The notes under the pieces were generated by a model. The model was given only the letters and a program-made list of their open reading frames with translations, had not been told where the DNA came from and did not search any database. Positions 39,071 to 60,448 of a DNA stretch of 64,000 nt are shown piece after piece. The position numbers and the translations under genes are program-made. Within the stretch, counting starts at the first letter, position 1; each line of letters begins with the position of its first letter. Origin of the DNA: an uncultured Candidatus Saccharibacteria bacterium (GTDB lineage: Bacteria > Patescibacteriota > Minisyncoccia > Phycocordibacterales > UBA9973); NCBI GenBank assembly GCA_964553015.1, contig CAZKJE010000002.1:14175-78174 (forward strand). The letters run 5' to 3'.

Positions 39071-39145
39071 TTGATATTAGTAGCAAAATAGACTTATGAA
39101 ACTACAAGAAGGATAATAGCGTAACTAAACCATAAAGTCAATTTG

Positions 39146-39535
39146 TGGAGATGGGGGAAATTGAATCCCCGTGCAGAAGGTTTTTGCAAAGAAGTCTACA
39201 TGCGTAGCGCGCTTTTTGTTTTAAATTAAAAAATTATGAAACGCGCCAAATATTTTTTAACCGAGTTCTTTTGTTTTGCGAGAGCGTCAGAACAGGCGTT
39301 CAAGCTATCCCGATAATGTTATGCCTCGTCTTATATATCGGAAGTCTATAAGAGAGACACCACCTCAGGCTTACGCGAAAGATGGAGCGAAAGCGAGCGC
39401 ATTACCGAAGTAAGGCGAACGCATTGCTGTGAAAGCTGATTTTGCAATTAGCTGTTGAACGAATTTTTACGAGATTACGTTCATTCTCGGCATGCATCAA
39501 TAACAAATGGCCAACTGTCTATGCCTTGCATCCCC
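39146..39535 (-). ncRNA. ssrA: tmRNA (SsrA)
   Basis: 5' GGGGAUG pairs with 3' CAUCUCC (G3-U70 Ala identity wobble) plus discriminator A. T-arm GGGGA-UUCAAUU-UCCCC. An in-frame GCA at nt 91 opens a tag frame ending ...NALAFAPSFA-UAA. Lies immediately downstream of smpB. Confidence 0.7.
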
Positions 39536-39546
39536 ATATTTACTTT

Positions 39547-39993
39547 TCAACGTCCTTTAAAATCTCGGCGAATCTCGCGATCAGTGTCACGCTTTTTTAG
39601 AGTTTCGCGTTTATCAAATTTTTTCTTGCCTTTCACCAGGGCAATTTCCAATTTGATTTTCCTGCCTTTATTATACACTGAAATCGGCACTATTGTCAAA
39701 CTTTTATTCTTCTCGCTGCCTTGTAGCTCATTAATTTCTTTTTTGGTCAGCAAAAGTTTCCTATTGCGCAGAGGATCATAATCTTTTGGCGCATTTTTTG
39801 CCTGATATGGAGGTATGTTGGCATTGATCAGGTATGCTTCGCCGCCGCGTATAATTACAAAAGCCCCCTCGAGCGACATCTGACCCGTTCGTACAGCTTT
39901 TACTTCTGTTCCCAAAAGCTCAATACCGGTTTCGTGCTTTTCTAGGAATTCATAATTGAATCGCGCTTTGCGGTTTTCTGTATAACTAGCCAT
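39547..39993 (-). CDS. smpB: SsrA-binding protein SmpB
   Basis: NRKARFNYE...GTEVKA...DPLRNRKLLL conserved SmpB motifs. Confidence 0.9.
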   Translation of the reverse strand: MASYTENRKARFNYEFLEKHETGIELLGTEVKAVRTGQMSLEGAFVIIRGGEAYLINANIPPYQAKNAPKDYDPLRNRKLLLTKKEINELQGSEKNKSLTIVPISVYNKGRKIKLEIALVKGKKKFDKRETLKKRDTDREIRRDFKGR

Positions 39994-40954: not shown

Positions 40955-41260
40955 ATAAGCATCTCATAGATTTTATTTGATTTAATATGAGGTCAAGAGA
41001 TTGTTTCGTATAGTCTCTTGCATATCCCTAAATCAAATGTAGTTTCTCAAAAACGATTAGCGAATTGAGAGATTTTCGCTAAAAACGCTTGAGAAATGAA
41101 GAGCTGAAATCTCTCTGGGTCTGGAGCGCTCGGGTTACCTTTAGCTCTTTGATCCATCTGTTGGTAAAAACCCGAACATCATCGCCGTCGGTTCGAAACA
41201 ACCCTCGGCACCCCACCCAAAGCTTCGGCCGCGGGTGGGTTTTTATTTTTATACTGAATT
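40955..41260 (+). other. Candidate structured ncRNA or long ftsH 5' leader, ending in a terminator-like hairpin (cccaccc...gggtggg + T-run at 41212-41245)
   Basis: Nested inverted repeats (ctcata..tatgag; caagaga..tctcttg; atttgatttaa..ttaaatcaaat; gagagattt..aaatctctc); no ORF with coding signal. Confidence 0.3.
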
Positions 41261-41301
41261 TTTTATTTCACATTTTGGGTTTTTTGTGCTATTATCTCAA
41301 A

Positions 41302-43230
41302 ATGGATTTAAATTTTCTTAACAATAAAACTGGCGACAAAGGGCGAAAGAAACTTCCGAAGCCGACGAAGTTCAGTGGGAATATTTTAGGCGCGATAATT
41401 TTTTTCATGCTCATCACTGCGCTTTACTTGGTGGTAGCAGGAGACCAAAAAACGGTTCCAGAAATTCCAATTTCCGACCTGGCGCAAAGCGTATCTGCGG
41501 GAGAGGTAAAAAATATTTTAGTTTCCGGAGACAAGCTCACCATCACGTACAAAAACGATCAAGTTAAGACATCCAAGAAAGAAGTGGGCTCGGCGCTGTC
41601 GCAGACACTTTTTAATTATGGGGTGCCGCCGGAAGCACTTGCGCAGACAGAAATAGAAATAAAAAACGAAAGTGGATTTGCGTACTGGCTCGTAAATATT
41701 CTGCCGTTTCTTCTGCCGGTAATTTTTATTCTGTTGTTTTTCTGGTATTTATCACGCCAGGTAAAAGGCGCAGGCATGCAGGCGTTTACTTTCGGACAAT
41801 CCAAGGCCCGCATCACAGATCCGAATGATAAAAATAATAAAGTTACTTTCAAAGACGTGGCCGGAGCCAAAGAAGCGAAGGAAGAATTGAAAGAGATTGT
41901 AGACTTTTTGAAAAGTCCGAAAAAATTTCTGGATATTGGCGCAAGGATTCCAAAAGGTGTAATGCTGACAGGAGCCCCGGGTACAGGAAAGACGCTGCTC
42001 GCTCGCGCTGTAGCAGGCGAGGCCTCCGTGCCGTTCTTTCATTTATCCGGCAGCGAATTCGTGGAAATGTTCGTTGGTGTCGGGGCTTCGCGTGTGCGTG
42101 ACCTATTTAAAATGGCTAAAAAAGCTGCACCGGCCATCATATTCGTGGATGAAATAGACGCTATCGGGCGCACGAGAGGGGGAGGCTTTGGCGGCGGGAA
42201 TGATGAACGCGAGCAAACCTTGAACCAGATTTTGGTGGAGATGGACGGCTTTGAACCGAACGATAAAGTGATAGTCATGGCGGCTACAAACAGGCCGGAC
42301 GTCCTCGATCCGGCGCTCATTCGCCCGGGACGTTTTGATAGAAAAGTAATGATAGATCTTCCGGATCGCGCTGACCGCGAAGAAATTTTAAAAATTCACG
42401 CTGTTAAAAAACCTCTCGCCGAAGATATAAATTTGAAATTAATTGCCGAACGTACACCTGGTTTTTCTGGCGCCGACCTGTATTCGCTCATGAACGAAGG
42501 TGCGATACTCGCCGCACGCGAGAACCGCAAGAAAGTTTTTCAATTTGATCTCATACGCGCGATAGAAAAAGTAATGCTCGGTCCTGAGAGGAAGAGCCAT
42601 TTGCTTTCCAAAAAAGAAAAAGAAATTACTGCGTACCATGAAGCGGGTCATGCGATCGTCGCATCAGTTTTACCTCACGCAGATCCCGTTCATAAAGTTT
42701 CTATCATCTCCCGCGGAAACGCCGGAGGATACACTTTGAAGCTTCCGCTTGAAGAAAGGCGATTGCAATCTAAAAAAGAATTTATAGATGACATTGCGAT
42801 GTCGCTCGGAGGATATGTGGCCGAGCAGATGATGTTCGGAGATATCACGACTGGTCCGTCAAGCGATTTGCAGGCAGCAACAAACATTGCGCGCGCCATG
42901 GTGACGCGCTGGGGCATGTCGGACATTATCGGACCGATAGCCTTGAACGATTCTCCCGGCCGTTCTATGTATGGAGGAGAAACAGTAGAAAAAGAATTTT
43001 CCGAAAGTGTTTCTACTAAAGTAGATGCTGAAGTTTCAAGAATAATTAGTGATGGGCTAAAGTCTGCGCAAATCGTAATTACCGAAAACAAAAAAGCCTT
43101 TGAGGCTATAGCACAAAAACTCATAGAAGTTGAAACCATAGAACAGGAGGAATATGAAAAAATTCTCATAGCGCACGGAATTATCTTAAAAAAGAAAGAA
43201 GTCATAGCTCCACCGGAAGGTACAAAGTAA
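41302..43230 (+). CDS. ftsH: ATP-dependent zinc metalloprotease FtsH (start at MDLNFL; the ORF-track 41089 start is an upstream extension)
   Basis: Two N-terminal TM helices, Walker [20 protein letters not shown] zinc site. Confidence 0.9.
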
Positions 43231-43323
43231 AAACCAAAGCGCTTTTCTGACTGTTTATATTATATGCGAACTATGGTATGCTATACTAGTACTAACTATT
43301 TGTAAGTTCATAAATAAAAAGAA

Positions 43324-43998
43324 ATGGCGAGAAAACAAGATAAACAAAGCGTTTTGGCTATGCGCAAGAGAGGAATGAGCTACAGCCAGATCAAAGGGAA
43401 AATAAAAATAAGCAAAAGCACTTTGAGTGTCTGGCTTAAAGATTTACCACTCGATGAAAAACGGATAAGAGAATTAAGAGACAATAGCCCTATTCGTATT
43501 GAAAAATTCAGAAATACAATGCGAGCAAAAAAAGAGATGAGACTTTATGAGGTATATAAAAAAGTCGCAAATGATATTTGTGATCTCTCAAAAAGAGATT
43601 TATTTTTAACAGGCTTGTTCTTATATTGGGGAGAAGGCACGAAATCACAAAATTCTTTAGTTGCCCTCACAAATACAAATCCAGCCATGGTTAAGTTTTT
43701 CATACAATGGCTAAAATTGTTTGGAGTAAAAAGCAAAGATTTGAAAATTAAACTACATTTATACTCCGATATGAAAATTAAAGAAAGTCTTGATTTTTGG
43801 TCAAAAGAGCTTAATATTCCGATAAGCCAGTTTTATAAGCCGTATGTTAAGAAAAATACTCTCAAATCTATCTCGTATAAAAATGGCTTTGGAAAAGGAA
43901 CATGTAGTGTTATATTTGGGAGTAGAGATCTTTGGGAATATATAACAATGGGATTGAAATATATTTCTGAAATTAGTAATGAAAATTTCCGCCCCTAG
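43324..43998 (+). CDS. HTH-domain protein with a LAGLIDADG-like motif (possible free-standing homing-endonuclease-like protein); its 3' end overlaps the tRNA
   Basis: N-terminal HTH (RKRGMSYSQIKGKIKISKSTLSVWLKD); LTGLFLYWGEGTKS resembles a LAGLIDADG block; stop codon lies within tRNA positions 8-10. Confidence 0.4.
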   Translation: MARKQDKQSVLAMRKRGMSYSQIKGKIKISKSTLSVWLKDLPLDEKRIRELRDNSPIRIEKFRNTMRAKKEMRLYEVYKKVANDICDLSKRDLFLTGLFLYWGEGTKSQNSLVALTNTNPAMVKFFIQWLKLFGVKSKDLKIKLHLYSDMKIKESLDFWSKELNIPISQFYKPYVKKNTLKSISYKNGFGKGTCSVIFGSRDLWEYITMGLKYISEISNENFRP

Positions 43999-44061
43999 CT
44001 CAGTTGGTAGAGCAATCCGCTTATACCGGATCGGTCCTTGGTTCGAGTCCAAGGGGGCGGA
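43989..44061 (+). tRNA. tRNA-Ile (anticodon UAU)
   Basis: Manual cloverleaf: acceptor CCGCCCC/GGGGCGG, D-arm GCTC-AGTTGGTA-GAGC, anticodon arm ATCCG-CTTATAC-CGGAT (U33, anticodon UAU, A37), T-arm CTTGG-TTCGAGT-CCAAG; CCA not encoded. Confidence 0.8.
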
Positions 44062-44063
44062 CA

Positions 44064-44624
44064 ATGAAAGATAATTTGAACGAAAAATTAATTTCTGTTC
44101 CCCAACCACCCGTATTCCATACCTCAAGCCGTTTTTTATACGACGAATGGGTGCGCCTGAGTAAGCGTCTGGAAATAGAAGAGTTAAACGAAGAGGAGCG
44201 TGTTATAATAGAACAAAAGAGATCTGCGCTATTTAAAGAATATGAAGTTGCGTCTAATCGTGAGCAAGCCGAACCCGAAGCCATAGGCTTAGAATTTCTA
44301 GAAAACTTGAAATACGCTATTAAACAGAAAGACAAAGCTTTGTTACGAAAAACAATCCTTATGATTCAAGAGTTTGTTAATCGCCCTAACTTTTATAAAG
44401 ATTTAGATTTTATCAGATTTGCTGATGATGAATTAGATAAGATTTTAAATAATCGAATTGCCGCTATTATTGTCGGATCAGGTACTTATGGTCAAAGAAT
44501 TTTGATTTCTTCCAGCCGCTTGCGCATGAGCGGAGATAGACACGGACAGGAGTATAGAAACCGTTTTGCTAAACTTTTCGGTCTCAAATTCGATCCTAAC
44601 ATTGATTTAAGTATTGAATTTTAA
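44064..44624 (+). CDS. Hypothetical protein (186 aa; start at MKDNLNEK)
   Basis: ORF immediately after the tRNA; no recognisable motifs. Confidence 0.45.
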   Translation: MKDNLNEKLISVPQPPVFHTSSRFLYDEWVRLSKRLEIEELNEEERVIIEQKRSALFKEYEVASNREQAEPEAIGLEFLENLKYAIKQKDKALLRKTILMIQEFVNRPNFYKDLDFIRFADDELDKILNNRIAAIIVGSGTYGQRILISSSRLRMSGDRHGQEYRNRFAKLFGLKFDPNIDLSIEF

Positions 44625-56947: not shown

Positions 56948-59900
56948 ATGCAGAAGCATGAAAACAATAACTCCAAATCAGAAGCAGCTTTGCGCGAAGA
57001 GCGAGTTTTGGAATTTTGGAAAGAAAATAAGATATTTAAAAAGTCGCTGGAGAAAAAATCCCCAAAGGGAGAATTTGTGTTTTATGATGGTCCAGTTACG
57101 GCAAACTCAAAGCCAGTTTTGCATACAATGCTACCTTTTTCTTTCAAAGATGTTATTCCCAGATATAAAACTATGCGCGGATATCATGTACGAAGGAAAG
57201 GCGGTTGGGATACGCATGGGCTTCCGGTAGAACTGCAAATAGAAAAAAAACTTGGGTTCAATTCAAAAGCAGATATTGAAAATTATGGTATTGCAGCTTT
57301 CAATAAATTATGTAAGGACAGTGTTTGGGAGTACGTTGGGGCATGGAAAAGTTTTACCGAACGAATGGGCTACTGGGCAGATCAAGATAATGCATATGTC
57401 ACATATTATAATAATTATATTGAATCTGTTTGGAATATAGTAAAAAAAATAAATGAGCAGAATCTGCTTTATAAAGATTACAAAGTGGTGCCGTGGTGCC
57501 CGAGGTGCGGTACAGCACTGTCTTCGCATGAGCTCGCACAGGGATACGAAGATGTAAAAGATCTGTCAGTGTATGTAAAGTTTAAGATAACTACGCCAGT
57601 GCAGGAAAATTCTGCCGCTTTACCCGCAAGCGGGCTCCGACACGGACAAAATTTTCCCGCATTGGCTCCGCAGTATATCCTCGCCTGGACGACGACGCCG
57701 TGGACCCTGCCCGGGAACGTTGCCTTAGCCGTCGGCGAAAATATTGATTATGTAAAGGTAAAGAGTGGAGAAGAGTTTTATATTCTCGCCAAAGAGAAGC
57801 TTTCAATCATAACCGAACCATATGAGATAGTGGAAGAGGTCAAGGGCGCGGGGCTAGTAGGGCTCGAATACGAGCCGTTGTATCCATATCTTGCAAATAC
57901 GGTTTCGGATACAGAAAAACCAAAATTAGAAAAGGCATACAAGGTGCACAAGGCAAACTTTGTGACCACAGATGACGGCACCGGCGTGGTGCATACGGCT
58001 GTGATGTATGGGCAAGATGACTTTATGCTCGGAACAGAAGTCGGCCTGCCGAAGCACCACCTCGTAGGTCTCGATGGCAAATTTTTAGCAGGCACAGGTA
58101 TTTTTGAAGGACGATTTGTAAAAGATGAAGAAGTCGCCGTAGATATCATTAAAGACTTGGCGCACCGCGGGCTTCTTTTCAAAAAAGAAAAATACGAGCA
58201 CTCGTATCCGCACTGCTGGCGCTGTAAAACTCCGCTCATATATTACGCGCGGGATTCTTGGTATATCCGGATGTCTGATCCTAGAATAAAAGCCGAAATG
58301 ATAAAGGAGAATAAAGAAATAAACTGGGAGCCGGAGCATATTCGCGACGGGCGGTTTGGGCAGTGGCTGGAAGAAATAAAAGACTGGGCAATATCCCGCG
58401 AACGGTACTGGGGCACGCCGCTGCCGGTCTGGGCCTGCGAAGCGTGTAAAAAAATTGAAGTAGTAGGAAGCGTAGAAGATCTAAAAAGTAGAACCAAAAA
58501 GTCTGGCAATAAATATTTTGTGATGCGGCACGGCGAGGCTGTCGATAACGCCAAGCATTTGGGTGATCCGAAAGGCGATCCAAATAATCACCTGACTGAT
58601 AAAGGGAAAAAAGAAATAATTCTTACCGCAGAAGAATTAAAAAATAAAAAAATTGATTTTATCTTTACGTCTTCTTTTCTGCGAACCAAAGAAACAGCAG
58701 AGGTCTTGAGAAAAGAACTAGGTTTGGAGCAAGAAAAAGTAATAGTTGAAGATAGATTGCATGAACACAATGAGGGAGACACTAAGCTCGTTCGCAAAAG
58801 GATGGCCGACTTTATTTATGAAATAGAAAAAAATTACGAAAATAAAAATATCTTAATAATTTCGCACGGAAATCCTATCTGGATCCTGCAGAAAACCGCT
58901 TTGGGCTTGTCTATAAATAATTTTACAGAAGGCGAGATGCTGCATACCGGCGAAGTCAAAGAATTAGATTTTATACCGCTACCGCATAATGAAAATTATG
59001 AGCTTGATCTGCACAAGCCTTATATAGATGAAATAAATCTTGTTTGTTCATGTGGTGGAAAATTAACACGCACGAAAGAAGTCATGGACGTGTGGTTTGA
59101 TTCGGGAGGCATGTCTTTTGCGCAGGATCATTACCCTTTCGATAACGCTTCCGGTAAATCTTTTGACGGCAAAGAACTTTTATATCCGGCGGATTTTATT
59201 TCAGAGGGCATAGATCAGACGCGCGGATGGTTTTACACCTTGCATGCTGTTGGAATTCTCTTGGGGCGGGGCAAGGCTTACAAAAACGTAATCTGCCTTG
59301 GCCATCTTCTCGACGCTAAGGGCAAAAAAATGTCCAAATCTCTCGGCAACGTCGTCGAGCCGTTTCTTGCGATGGATACATATGGCGTGGATACTTTGCG
59401 TTTGTGGATGTATTCCATAAATCAGCCGGGCGAATCCAAGAATTTTGATGAGAAAACAGTAGCGCTTCTTTCTCAGCAGATTTTTGGCTTGCTTTACAAT
59501 GTGCTTGCGTTTTATGAACTTTATCGCGATGTTTCGCTAGAGCCTAGAGCCTATGGCCTAAAGCCCAGCAATATTTTAGATAAATGGATCTTGGCGCGTC
59601 TAGATGAGTTGACAGAGCTTGCAACCAAAAATTTAGATAACTACAAATTGCTGGAGCCAGTGCGGGGCATGAGAGACTTTATCGGCGATCTTTCTACTTG
59701 GTATTTGCGCCGTTCGCGCGACAGGATAAAATCCTCCTCCGCACAAGGCTCCGGTGGAACAAGGGAAGGAGATGAAGCGAAGGAAACTCTGTACTATGTG
59801 CTAAAAACCTTGGCAAAACTCATGGCTCCGCTCGCGCCGTTTGCCGCTGAAGACATCTGGCTTAAGTTAAAAAATGAAGATGATGAAGAAAGCGTGCATT

Positions 59901-60448
59901 TGGCGAGCTGGCCGGAAGTAAAAAAGACATCTTTTATCTCCAAGTTGCTTAAAAATGATCCAAGCAAAAAAATAATTGAAAATATGGAGAGCGTCAGAAG
60001 AGTAGTCACACTCGGACTCGAAGCTCGACAGAAAACCGGAATAAAAGTCCGCCAGCCTCTTAATCAATTACGAATTAAAAATTACGAATTAGGAATTGAG
60101 TATGCAGACTTGATTAGAGAAGAGCTGAATGTCAGAGAAGTTATTTTTGATAATTCTATTGAAGGCGAGGTGTGGCTCGATATAAGAATAAACGAAGAGC
60201 TCAAAGCTGAAGGGGATTACAGGGAGTTTGTCCGCGCGCTGCAGGATATGAGAAAGAAAACCGGACTGACGCCGAGCGACGTGGTCTCTGTTACTTTTGA
60301 AACAAACAAAGCAGGCAAGGAACTTATTAAAAAATTCGAAGCTGAAATGAAAAAAACAGTGCTTGTCTCTACGATAGAATTTTCGGAAAATGAAGGAGAA
60401 AAAATAAAAATCGACAATCTTCACTTCAGGATAAAAATTGATAAATAA
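56948..60448 (+). CDS. ileS: Isoleucyl-tRNA synthetase, type 2 (eukaryote-like), with an inserted histidine-phosphatase domain
   Basis: GWDTHGLPVE, CP1 editing motifs (TTTPWTLPGN, GTGVVHTA), CWRC zinc knuckle, KMSKS; ~170-aa insert with RHGE...SSFLRTKET...ISHGNP motifs. Confidence 0.9.
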   Translation: MQKHENNNSKSEAALREERVLEFWKENKIFKKSLEKKSPKGEFVFYDGPVTANSKPVLHTMLPFSFKDVIPRYKTMRGYHVRRKGGWDTHGLPVELQIEKKLGFNSKADIENYGIAAFNKLCKDSVWEYVGAWKSFTERMGYWADQDNAYVTYYNNYIESVWNIVKKINEQNLLYKDYKVVPWCPRCGTALSSHELAQGYEDVKDLSVYVKFKITTPVQENSAALPASGLRHGQNFPALAPQYILAWTTTPWTLPGNVALAVGENIDYVKVKSGEEFYILAKEKLSIITEPYEIVEEVKGAGLVGLEYEPLYPYLANTVSDTEKPKLEKAYKVHKANFVTTDDGTGVVHTAVMYGQDDFMLGTEVGLPKHHLVGLDGKFLAGTGIFEGRFVKDEEVAVDIIKDLAHRGLLFKKEKYEHSYPHCWRCKTPLIYYARDSWYIRMSDPRIKAEMIKENKEINWEPEHIRDGRFGQWLEEIKDWAISRERYWGTPLPVWACEACKKIEVVGSVEDLKSRTKKSGNKYFVMRHGEAVDNAKHLGDPKGDPNNHLTDKGKKEIILTAEELKNKKIDFIFTSSFLRTKETAEVLRKELGLEQEKVIVEDRLHEHNEGDTKLVRKRMADFIYEIEKNYENKNILIISHGNPIWILQKTALGLSINNFTEGEMLHTGEVKELDFIPLPHNENYELDLHKPYIDEINLVCSCGGKLTRTKEVMDVWFDSGGMSFAQDHYPFDNASGKSFDGKELLYPADFISEGIDQTRGWFYTLHAVGILLGRGKAYKNVICLGHLLDAKGKKMSKSLGNVVEPFLAMDTYGVDTLRLWMYSINQPGESKNFDEKTVALLSQQIFGLLYNVLAFYELYRDVSLEPRAYGLKPSNILDKWILARLDELTELATKNLDNYKLLEPVRGMRDFIGDLSTWYLRRSRDRIKSSSAQGSGGTREGDEAKETLYYVLKTLAKLMAPLAPFAAEDIWLKLKNEDDEESVHLASWPEVKKTSFISKLLKNDPSKKIIENMESVRRVVTLGLEARQKTGIKVRQPLNQLRIKNYELGIEYADLIREELNVREVIFDNSIEGEVWLDIRINEELKAEGDYREFVRALQDMRKKTGLTPSDVVSVTFETNKAGKELIKKFEAEMKKTVLVSTIEFSENEGEKIKIDNLHFRIKIDK

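Follow-up and report, generated by a model that had tools for sequence, protein, structure and literature searches.

What kind of gene ends inside a tRNA gene, and how would it have come to lie there? The question is raised by a 64-kb stretch of DNA from an uncultured Candidatus Saccharibacteria bacterium, an ultra-small member of the candidate phyla radiation (CPR) (contig CAZKJE010000002.1, positions 14,175 to 78,174; the whole stretch is called the window below), in which an open reading frame (ORF) of 224 codons overlaps the gene for a tRNA-Ile with anticodon UAU by 10 nt, because its TAG stop codon at 43996-43998 is also positions 8-10 of the tRNA. The reading favored here, at a probability of about 0.55, takes the ORF for a selfish gene of the homing-endonuclease type, free-standing and site-specific, situated at the boundary of the tRNA-Ile(UAU) gene. 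The features on which the argument turns are:

41302..43230, + strand: ftsH, the conserved left neighbor of the tRNA-Ile(UAU) site in this clade (Pfam context in relatives)
43324..43998, + strand: the 224-aa ORF, with an ATG start, from a Patescibacteria family without a name; helix-turn-helix (HTH) plus a weakly LAGLIDADG-like C-terminal domain
43989..44062, + strand: tRNA-Ile(UAU) gene (ARAGORN, Rfam RF00005, covariation), with a C1-G72 acceptor stem, discriminator A73 and CCA not encoded
43996..43998, + strand: ORF stop codon TAG, which is tRNA nucleotides U8-A9-G10
44022..44024, + strand: anticodon T34-A35-T36 (UAU), which reads AUA (ARAGORN, Rfam), invariant in 61 orthologous tRNAs

A sequence-only reading of this locus had proposed a UAU-anticodon tRNA with a clean cloverleaf and an ORF stop codon within it, and both proposals hold. 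ARAGORN called a single tRNA in the window, a tRNA-Ile with anticodon tat at 43989-44062 (+); the Rfam tRNA model (RF00005) scored 65.7 bits over 43989-44061, against a gathering score of 29 (E 4.7e-12), and its alignment has zero non-canonical pairs and the anticodon loop C-U-U-A-U-A-C. Across 32 orthologues from species-level genomes, 99% of cloverleaf cells are paired and compensatory double changes are found in 17 of the 21 pairs. The covariation score is 0.61 vs 0.14 for shuffles (0/500 reach 0.61) and at most 0.12 in slid registers. The cloverleaf is far beyond chance, and because of this covariation, together with the invariance of T34-A35-T36-A37 and A73 among orthologues, the gene can be taken as real, functional and under selection.

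How closely is the ORF tied to this tRNA? Starting from the protein, with the family alignment as query, 60 loci were collected from species-representative genomes (38-78% identity) of the Parcubacteria and Microgenomates groups, labeled Nomura-, Giovannoni-, Kaiser-, Vogel-, Nealson-, Taylor-, Azam-, Woese-, Levyi- and Gottesmanbacteria. In 58 of them the family gene has a tRNA-Ile(tat) directly beside it, and the contigs of the remaining two end at the gene. In 21 loci the gap between ORF and tRNA measures exactly -10, the ORF ending on the tRNA's TAG as in the window; elsewhere it is mostly 0-30 nt. In L025 and L045 the tRNA is inverted but still adjoins the ORF. The wider neighbors of the pair vary, with ftsH upstream in many loci and tRNA clusters downstream in others. 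At first sight the 58/60 pairing makes the ORF look like a functional partner of the tRNA, conserved and passed on vertically; this idea was dropped because most tRNA-Ile(UAU) genes have no such ORF.

This emerged from the tRNA side, where a metagenome scan with a pattern for the D arm and anticodon loop gave at least 120 loci. Among the matches listed, 105 of 120 scan loci have a valid intron-less tRNA-Ile(tat), and the family gene is present in 13 tRNA-anchored loci, abutting the tRNA in all 13: eight copies lie upstream, four are convergent at the tRNA 3' end, and one, a copy of only 31% identity, lies downstream. Occupancy is likewise low, again among the matches listed, at 8/68 (~12%) of tRNA-Ile(UAU) loci with at least 750 nt on both flanks; every family copy that could be tested (71/71) abuts a tRNA-Ile(UAU). 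The scan also retrieved eight loci (L067, L085, L101, L103, L105, L110, L129 and L141) whose tRNA-Ile(UAU) is interrupted after position 37. These are taken to be intron-bearing eukaryotic genes, and their retrieval argues against a bias of the pattern search toward the CPR. Locus L183 holds a divergent family member (2260-2919 in tRNA-oriented coordinates; 31% identity) downstream of and co-directional with its tRNA-Ile(UAU), a third type of geometry; all the nearest FtsH relatives of L183 have empty sites.

In Patescibacteria tRNA-Ile(UAU) is common and usually lies just downstream of ftsH, apparently with a short promoter of its own. About 20 metagenome loci, among the matches listed, consist of ftsH, a 17-190 nt spacer and the tRNA, without the ORF, and in two of the empty sites (L100 and L173) FtsH is ~89% identical to that of the window over the matched C-terminal segment. 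Other relatives carry unrelated genes between FtsH and the tRNA: in one case a transposase of IS200 type, in others a hydrolase, a VanY-like peptidase or a glycosyltransferase. The gap is therefore an insertion hot spot. At 88-93% FtsH identity, occupied, empty and otherwise-filled sites are intermingled. Pairs of occupied and empty sites similar enough to read exact insertion boundaries from were absent from the loci compared, the best empty sites having ~75% ftsH DNA identity. Copies of the ORF also decay: L082 keeps only a C-terminal fragment (…REGFGHGTCNVIISD) beside its tRNA, and the family copy of L057 has an in-frame stop. Since the protein is always with the tRNA and the tRNA is mostly without the protein, and since there are empty sites and remnants as well, the pattern is that of a site-specific selfish gene; site-specific occupancy, empty cognate sites in relatives and decay remnants are all elements of a homing life cycle. 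The earlier suggestion that a mobile gene had inserted against the tRNA is supported by this comparison of flanks, and also by the lower synonymous divergence described below. The transposase at L130 (616-1305 in tRNA-oriented coordinates) is an IS200/IS605-like Y1 enzyme with HIYNRG…MPNHFHLL motifs.

Genomic linkage exclusively to tRNA-Ile(UAU) would also be expected if the ORF protein acted on the tRNA molecule, as a modification, processing or chaperone factor that stands in for TilS. Its invariant Cys, Lys, Glu and Tyr residues could be put to such a use, and some LAGLIDADG proteins do bind RNA, as maturases. Set against this, ~88% of tRNA-Ile(UAU) genes among the matches listed, including those of the closest relatives, have no ORF, so it is not required for decoding; the HTH is of the DNA-binding type; and no similarity of the family to a known RNA-modifying fold was found with Foldseek on AlphaFold models or in PHROGs. 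A role of this kind is very unlikely.

Is the ORF a working gene, and how old is it at this site? The closest homologues, at L187 and L189, are 90% and 88% identical to it, and the dN/dS values of 0.09-0.14 in comparison with them indicate a working gene under purifying selection. Two facts might favor a coincidental overlap or an annotation artefact, a spurious ORF running into the tRNA: the last ~9 codons are unconserved, and it is the universal TAG of the tRNA that provides the stop. This idea is refuted by a family of 1,596 clusters in a single-sequence search and 3,184 in a profile search, thousands of homologues with invariant motifs, by the dN/dS of about 0.1, and by confident AlphaFold (AF2) models (pLDDT 81-86); its probability is negligible.

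The divergence of the ORF differs from that of its neighbors. Between the window and L187, synonymous divergence (pS) is 0.36 in the ORF, 0.73 in FtsH and 0.70 in RNR, and among pairs drawn from 50 loci the ORF has the lower pS in 9/9 closest pairs (ORF/FtsH: 0.00/0.10, 0.08/0.21, 0.08/0.25, 0.36/0.69, 0.41/0.57, 0.42/0.65, 0.47/0.64, 0.49/0.62 and 0.49/0.62). Composition does not explain the difference, because both genes level off alike, with plateaus of 0.79 for the ORF and 0.81 for FtsH. Sliding nucleotide identity between the window and L187 averages 0.79 across FtsH, with a drop to 0.69, and is 0.65 for the spacer; it rises to 0.88-0.93 over the ORF and 0.94 over the tRNA, and is ~0.55 (unrelated) downstream and 0.80 in RNR; the effect is weaker for window vs L189. 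These comparisons mark the ORF and tRNA as an island younger than its flanks. At larger distances ORF and FtsH identities are correlated (Pearson 0.77), and in a few pairs FtsH is 79-85% identical and the ORF only 43-49%. Taken together, the figures can be read to mean that the ORF has long persisted by vertical descent, interrupted now and then by transfer or gene conversion between related genomes.

What might the protein do? Homologues come from metagenome-assembled genomes of Paceibacterota/Patescibacteria and are named "helix-turn-helix protein," "transcriptional regulator" or "transposase-like," or are hypothetical. Alignments of the family, one of them drawing its diversity from a search seeded with a distant member, show a conserved core that stops near residue 215, followed by ~9 variable residues. 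Invariant at 38-100% identity in the C-terminal domain are F99-L-Y-W-G-E-G105, K107, N117, Y147, W159, K176 and G192-T-C194. The parts of the protein most used below are:

43327..43443, + strand: N-terminal helix-turn-helix, residues 2-40 (Pfam HTH_23; three short helices in AF2 models)
43600..43644, + strand: LFLTGLFLYWGEGTK motif, residues 93-107, with F99-G105 and K107 invariant at 38-100% identity
43897..43905, + strand: invariant G192-T193-C194 of the C-terminal domain (alignments), the sole part surviving in the decayed L082 copy

The N-terminal HTH claimed by the sequence-only reading is secure at the family level, HTH_23 matching 50 of the 51 members (best E 3.4e-8), and the window copy scores below the Pfam cut-off (20.8 bits vs 24.6; E 3.4e-4). 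In PHROGs, only the HTH part of the ORF was matched. HTH_23, HTH_28 and HTH_7 are typical N-terminal domains of transposases and resolvases, the HTH parts of the ORF weakly match those of IS3, IS1 and IS21 (NCBIfam, E 0.01-0.2), and the "transposase-like protein" names belong to JGI records. It could be, then, that the ORF is the sole gene of a new minimal transposable or integrative element that targets tRNAs, encoding a transposase or recombinase with a novel catalytic domain; insertion is site-specific at a tRNA and occurs in both orientations, and the IS200-like element of L130 occupies the same site. Nevertheless, Pfam and NCBIfam detect no DDE, Y1, serine- or tyrosine-recombinase domain in the ORF, there is one copy per locus only, and terminal inverted repeats at both ends are absent, because the one inverted repeat lies wholly 5' of the ORF; nor were target duplications seen at the two ends. 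An insertion sequence in the ordinary sense, with a recognized transposase catalytic domain and terminal repeats at both ends, is not what is found here, and the sole specific remote match is to a LAGLIDADG enzyme, which leaves a new transposable element improbable.

That match comes from a profile of the 51 diverse members searched against all PDB sequences, whose top six hits are I-DmoI entries (E 0.005). The family GLFLYWGEGTK...N...W aligns to the second LAGLIDADG motif of I-DmoI, GLYVAEGDKT...N...W, placing the invariant E104 on the Glu of AEGDK and K107 on its Lys, in a profile alignment that is weak at this E value. E104 and K107 would occupy the positions of I-DmoI catalytic residues. 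Pfam gives the same direction below threshold: LAGLIDADG_3 scores 13.8 bits in the window ORF vs a cut-off of 22.5 (E 0.07) and appears at E<1 in 8/51 family members, all sub-threshold (best 0.05). The ORF motif is two residues longer than the canonical LAGLIDADG, and it is there, at residues 105-108, that the AF2 models are least confident. The C-terminal domain is probably LAGLIDADG-derived. As for the LAGLIDADG-like block LTGLFLYWGEG (residues 95-105) pointed out from sequence, the likeness finds weak support in the I-DmoI profile match and none from Pfam thresholds or fold comparison.

I-DmoI is the closest counterpart, being the best and only specific remote match together with LAGLIDADG_3, with Glu on Glu and Lys on Lys, and the lifestyle would be the same, that of a selfish site-specific gene. 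The differences are nevertheless several. At E 0.005 the likeness is weak, Pfam places it below threshold, and no fold match accompanies it; the ORF protein is single-domain and would need to dimerize, and has the longer motif, an insertion of ~45 residues before the last strand and an N-terminal HTH; and the ORF is free-standing, outside any intron or intein. In the CPR, rRNA introns often harbor LAGLIDADG homing endonucleases (PMC8172020, PMC7143001). In comparing domain plans, the ORF can also be set beside a second bacterial chromosomal protein that combines an HTH with a LAGLIDADG-derived domain. WhiA is a bacterial regulator consisting of a degenerate LAGLIDADG scaffold and an HTH: two LAGLIDADG domains, a C-terminal HTH, catalytic residues lost, and near-universal presence in its lineages. 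The ORF family has the reversed domain order, keeps the Glu/Lys pair and is patchy; a domesticated regulator of the WhiA type does not fit the absence of any Pfam match to WhiA_N, LAGLIDADG_WhiA or HTH_WhiA in the ORF or its presence at only ~12% of tRNA sites among the matches listed.

How are the two overlapping genes expressed? Elements bearing on this lie at either end of the ORF:

43268..43309, + strand: inverted, operator-like half-sites GAAC (43268-71) and GTTC (43306-09), 34 nt apart, upstream of the ORF
43279-87, + strand: TGnTATACT box between the half-sites, -10-like
43954..43988, + strand: variable ORF tail (~9 codons), which appears from the anchored comparison to lie over the candidate tRNA promoter and leader

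Because a generic promoter and terminator consensus scan did not rise above chance, what follows on promoters comes from 64 occupied and 19 empty sites anchored on tRNA +1. The candidate tRNA promoter of the window reads TTGAAA, 17 nt, TAATGA, 6 nt, tRNA +1. In most of the occupied sites a TATAAT-like box lies 7-20 nt before that point, often with the ORF's TAA stop inside it. In the group with the -10 overlap, the ORF tail …TAGTAATaaaaatat|CC is similar to …TAGTATtaaaaaatat|CC at the promoter of empty sites (TAGTAAT-aaaaatat in the tail, TAGTAT-taaaaaatat in the empty site). The simplest reading would be that the 3' end of the ORF houses a promoter belonging to the tRNA, and that the variable tail is a translation of promoter and leader. 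RNase P processing of a read-through transcript would remove the ORF stop codon.

At the other end, exact GAAC…GTTC arms upstream of the start codon are found in 36/69 loci vs 0.61 expected, spaced 32-35 nt apart, with the 3' arm ending 1-10 nt before the start codon and a -10-like box between the arms or just before them. The symmetry reaches only 3 nt outward; in the window just the 4-nt core remains. The element is absent from the empty sites examined. An RNA hairpin was rejected as the main reading of this repeat, given a symmetry of ~7 bp, a 34-nt spacer and the position of the -10-like box. The arrangement suggests an operator through which the ORF protein, by binding there, may repress its own gene. 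This has a parallel in I-TevI, an endonuclease that represses its own promoter via an operator: in each case a homing-type gene carries an operator or an operator-like dyad over its own promoter. In the ORF, though, the half-sites of the putative operator are 34 nt apart.

Such an operator is also central to the main rival, in which the ORF would encode a vertically inherited, autoregulated HTH transcription factor tied to tRNA-Ile(UAU), repeatedly lost and not mobile; limiting the expression of a tRNA that might misread AUG is an example of the role it could have. Several results weigh against a homing endonuclease and favor, or at least suit, a factor of this kind. None of the 51 family members compared has a LAGLIDADG Pfam match above the gathering score; Foldseek found no LAGLIDADG fold from two AlphaFold models, nor was any nuclease fold detected; the models do not appear to form the alpha-beta-beta-alpha-beta-beta-alpha core fold; the operator-like half-sites surround a -10-like box in many loci (36/69, where 0.6 would be expected); and the divergences of ORF and FtsH are correlated (r=0.77). 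The HTH, present in 50/51 members, and the purifying selection on the ORF would fit a transcription factor as well. On the other side, among the matches listed the gene occurs at only ~12% of tRNA-Ile(UAU) genes, and the nearest relatives are without it; adjacency is kept in the convergent arrangement, which neither co-transcription nor a shared promoter can explain; the anchored comparison shows no evident copy of the operator near the promoter of the tRNA; and the island of ORF and tRNA is younger than its flanks in 9/9 close pairs. The invariant Glu/Lys/Tyr/Cys set of the C-terminal domain, moreover, suggests catalysis. A transcription factor is judged unlikely, and a homing-type selfish gene is preferred.

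If the ORF is a homing-type gene, its cycle might run as follows. The protein would recognize the tRNA-Ile(UAU) gene region of ORF-less genomes and cut there, and repair from an ORF-bearing copy would then copy in the ORF with the adjacent tRNA. That copy could arrive as DNA taken up from outside: among the host's genes are those for ComEC and for type IV pilus-like proteins (DNA uptake). The ORF would come to lie between the upstream gene and the tRNA promoter, without a terminator or stop of its own, and its frame would run through the tRNA promoter and leader to the first in-frame stop, either the TAA of the tRNA -10 box or, as in the window, the universal U8-A9-G10 TAG within the tRNA; the overlap would exist because of this read-through. 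Autorepression through the inverted GAAC/GTTC half-sites around its own -10-like box may hold its expression down.

Free-standing homing genes beside tRNA genes are already known from phages and organelles. Phage T4 SegB is a free-standing homing endonuclease gene in a tRNA cluster, and free-standing LAGLIDADG genes lie near tRNA genes in fungal mitochondria. The likeness extends to patchy distribution and to the way the neighboring tRNA region is preferentially inherited or co-converted. Those genes differ in belonging to phage or organelle genomes and in not being bound to one tRNA species, whereas the ORF belongs to a large family in a cellular superphylum, exclusively at tRNA-Ile(UAU). What would be new here is that exclusive tie to a single tRNA species across a bacterial superphylum, together with a divergent domain and a link to unusual decoding. 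A family of ~3,200 clusters annotated as "helix-turn-helix protein" would gain a concrete identity as the site-specific selfish gene of one tRNA species. It would also offer a possibly new nuclease domain with a defined natural target region, hence a new sequence-specific DNA-binding or cutting scaffold, would make it possible to trace DNA exchange between ultra-small bacteria that are not in cultivation, and would exemplify tRNA gene boundaries as landing pads.

Why this tRNA? The UAU-anticodon species recurs in many Patescibacteria lineages, and in the window it occurs alongside a eukaryote-type isoleucyl-tRNA synthetase (IleRS):

56948..60448, + strand: IleRS, eukaryote-like type 2, with an inserted His_Phos_1 domain (TIGR00392 869 bits; PDB comparison; PF00300)

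AUA is used at 30.9 per 1000 codons in the window, or 39% of Ile codons. The IleRS is MupA/MupB-like in its match to TIGR00392 (869 bits), and against PDB sequences it scores 770 bits with IleRS2, 727 bits with the T. thermophilus enzyme and 310-321 bits with bacterial type 1 enzymes. It is by sequence of the type able to take a UAU anticodon, and presumably the charging enzyme of tRNA-Ile(UAU). All of this indicates that the organism decodes AUA with this functional tRNA of the UAU type, which would be charged with isoleucine and would read AUA and not AUG. A type 2 IleRS is permissive for the UAU anticodon but is no proof of tilS-independence, because T. thermophilus combines a type 2 enzyme with TilS. 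Neither the 64-kb window nor 1.51 Mb of DNA from related loci, a non-random sample that includes no whole genome, contains a TilS-like ORF with a PP-loop (SGGxDS); the two matches to the PP-loop motif in this DNA are GuaA and AsnB. The few CAU tRNAs in the related loci are an initiator-like species (C1-A72) and a second CAU species, none of them like the UAU tRNA. A tilS-independent decoding of AUA is consistent with the eukaryote-type IleRS, the heavy AUA use and the lack of a TilS-like ORF in the scanned DNA, and is unproven because that DNA is not a genome. If tilS is truly absent, a very large share of bacterial diversity decodes AUA without lysidine. No paper in the library searched ties TilS or lysidine to CPR/Patescibacteria bacteria.

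As late as 2026, a review gives Mycoplasma mobile as the natural case of a bacterium reading AUA via a UAU anticodon (PMC13602947). That tRNA-Ile2(UAU) system is similar in that the UAU anticodon is genomically encoded and reads AUA in a small-genome bacterium (PMC3575796), and in that the conventional lysidine route is not evident in either (here, in the scanned DNA). In M. mobile, however, one residue of a type 1 IleRS is altered (Trp to Arg, Arg865; Taniguchi et al., 2013, PMC3575796), whereas the window has the eukaryote-like type 2 enzyme; tilS loss and unmodified U34 were shown there by experiment; and the system there is one species' peculiarity, whereas the UAU tRNA here recurs across many lineages. 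The tilS-less, UAU-using Bifidobacterium and Neorickettsia have tRNA-Ile(UAU) with an IleRS of eukaryote/archaeal type (Taniguchi et al., 2013, PMC3575796), and it is their solution that the window IleRS resembles, unlike that of M. mobile. They belong to another phylum and are known to lack tilS, whereas here a partial genome sequence was scanned, and the window IleRS carries the extra inserted domain. This His_Phos_1 domain (PGM-like, PF00300) lies at residues 524-611 (about 522-620) between the synthetase core halves, splitting the ileS model match into 9-535 and about 700-1166. The fusion of IleRS with His_Phos_1 is unusual; free-standing His_Phos_1 genes are present in the relative L002.

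A further step, which is speculative and improbable on present evidence, would connect the selfish gene with the decoding system. Because the identity island covers both ORF and tRNA, the two might travel together as one gene-conversion unit, and each homing event would then overwrite the recipient's tRNA-Ile locus with the UAU allele. In this way the ORF may have spread, or may still enforce, lysidine-free UAU reading across Patescibacteria. If true, this would be a homing element that alters the codon decoding of its host, and it would explain the departure of the superphylum from the near-universal TilS system.

Beyond the tRNA, the neighborhood is again variable:

44064..44624, + strand: orphan ORF of 186 aa that starts 2 nt after the tRNA (no Pfam/NCBIfam match)

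No homologue of this orphan was found in the closest relatives L187, L189 and L002, which have 87-aa and 181-194-aa ORFs in its place; since relatives carry these other small ORFs, the tRNA 3' flank is a second variable spot. On the upstream side, the mechanically called ftsH ORF (41089-43230) starts 71 codons further upstream, at a TTG; this N-terminal extension is probably not translated, because homologues start at the MDLNF… methionine (41302).

Some observations on other RNA genes were made in passing. A tmRNA (39143-39535, - strand; Rfam 119.6 bits) adjoins smpB (39547-39993); ARAGORN missed it in the window and found tmRNAs in many relatives. The relatives also have a conserved Ser-type tRNA with anticodon ACU (A34), a long variable arm and compensatory acceptor-stem changes, usually beside tRNA-Ser(GCU):

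L002, 20466-20555, - strand: Ser-type tRNA(ACU)
L008, 10332-10419, - strand: Ser-type tRNA(ACU)
L010, 12468-12555, - strand: Ser-type tRNA(ACU)
L012, 11547-11633, + strand: Ser-type tRNA(ACU)
L014, 10592-10679, - strand: Ser-type tRNA(ACU)
L015, 10746-10832, - strand: Ser-type tRNA(ACU)

A tRNA-Leu(AAG) lies at 7194-7275 in L040; in bacteria, A34 is unusual outside tRNA-Arg(ACG).

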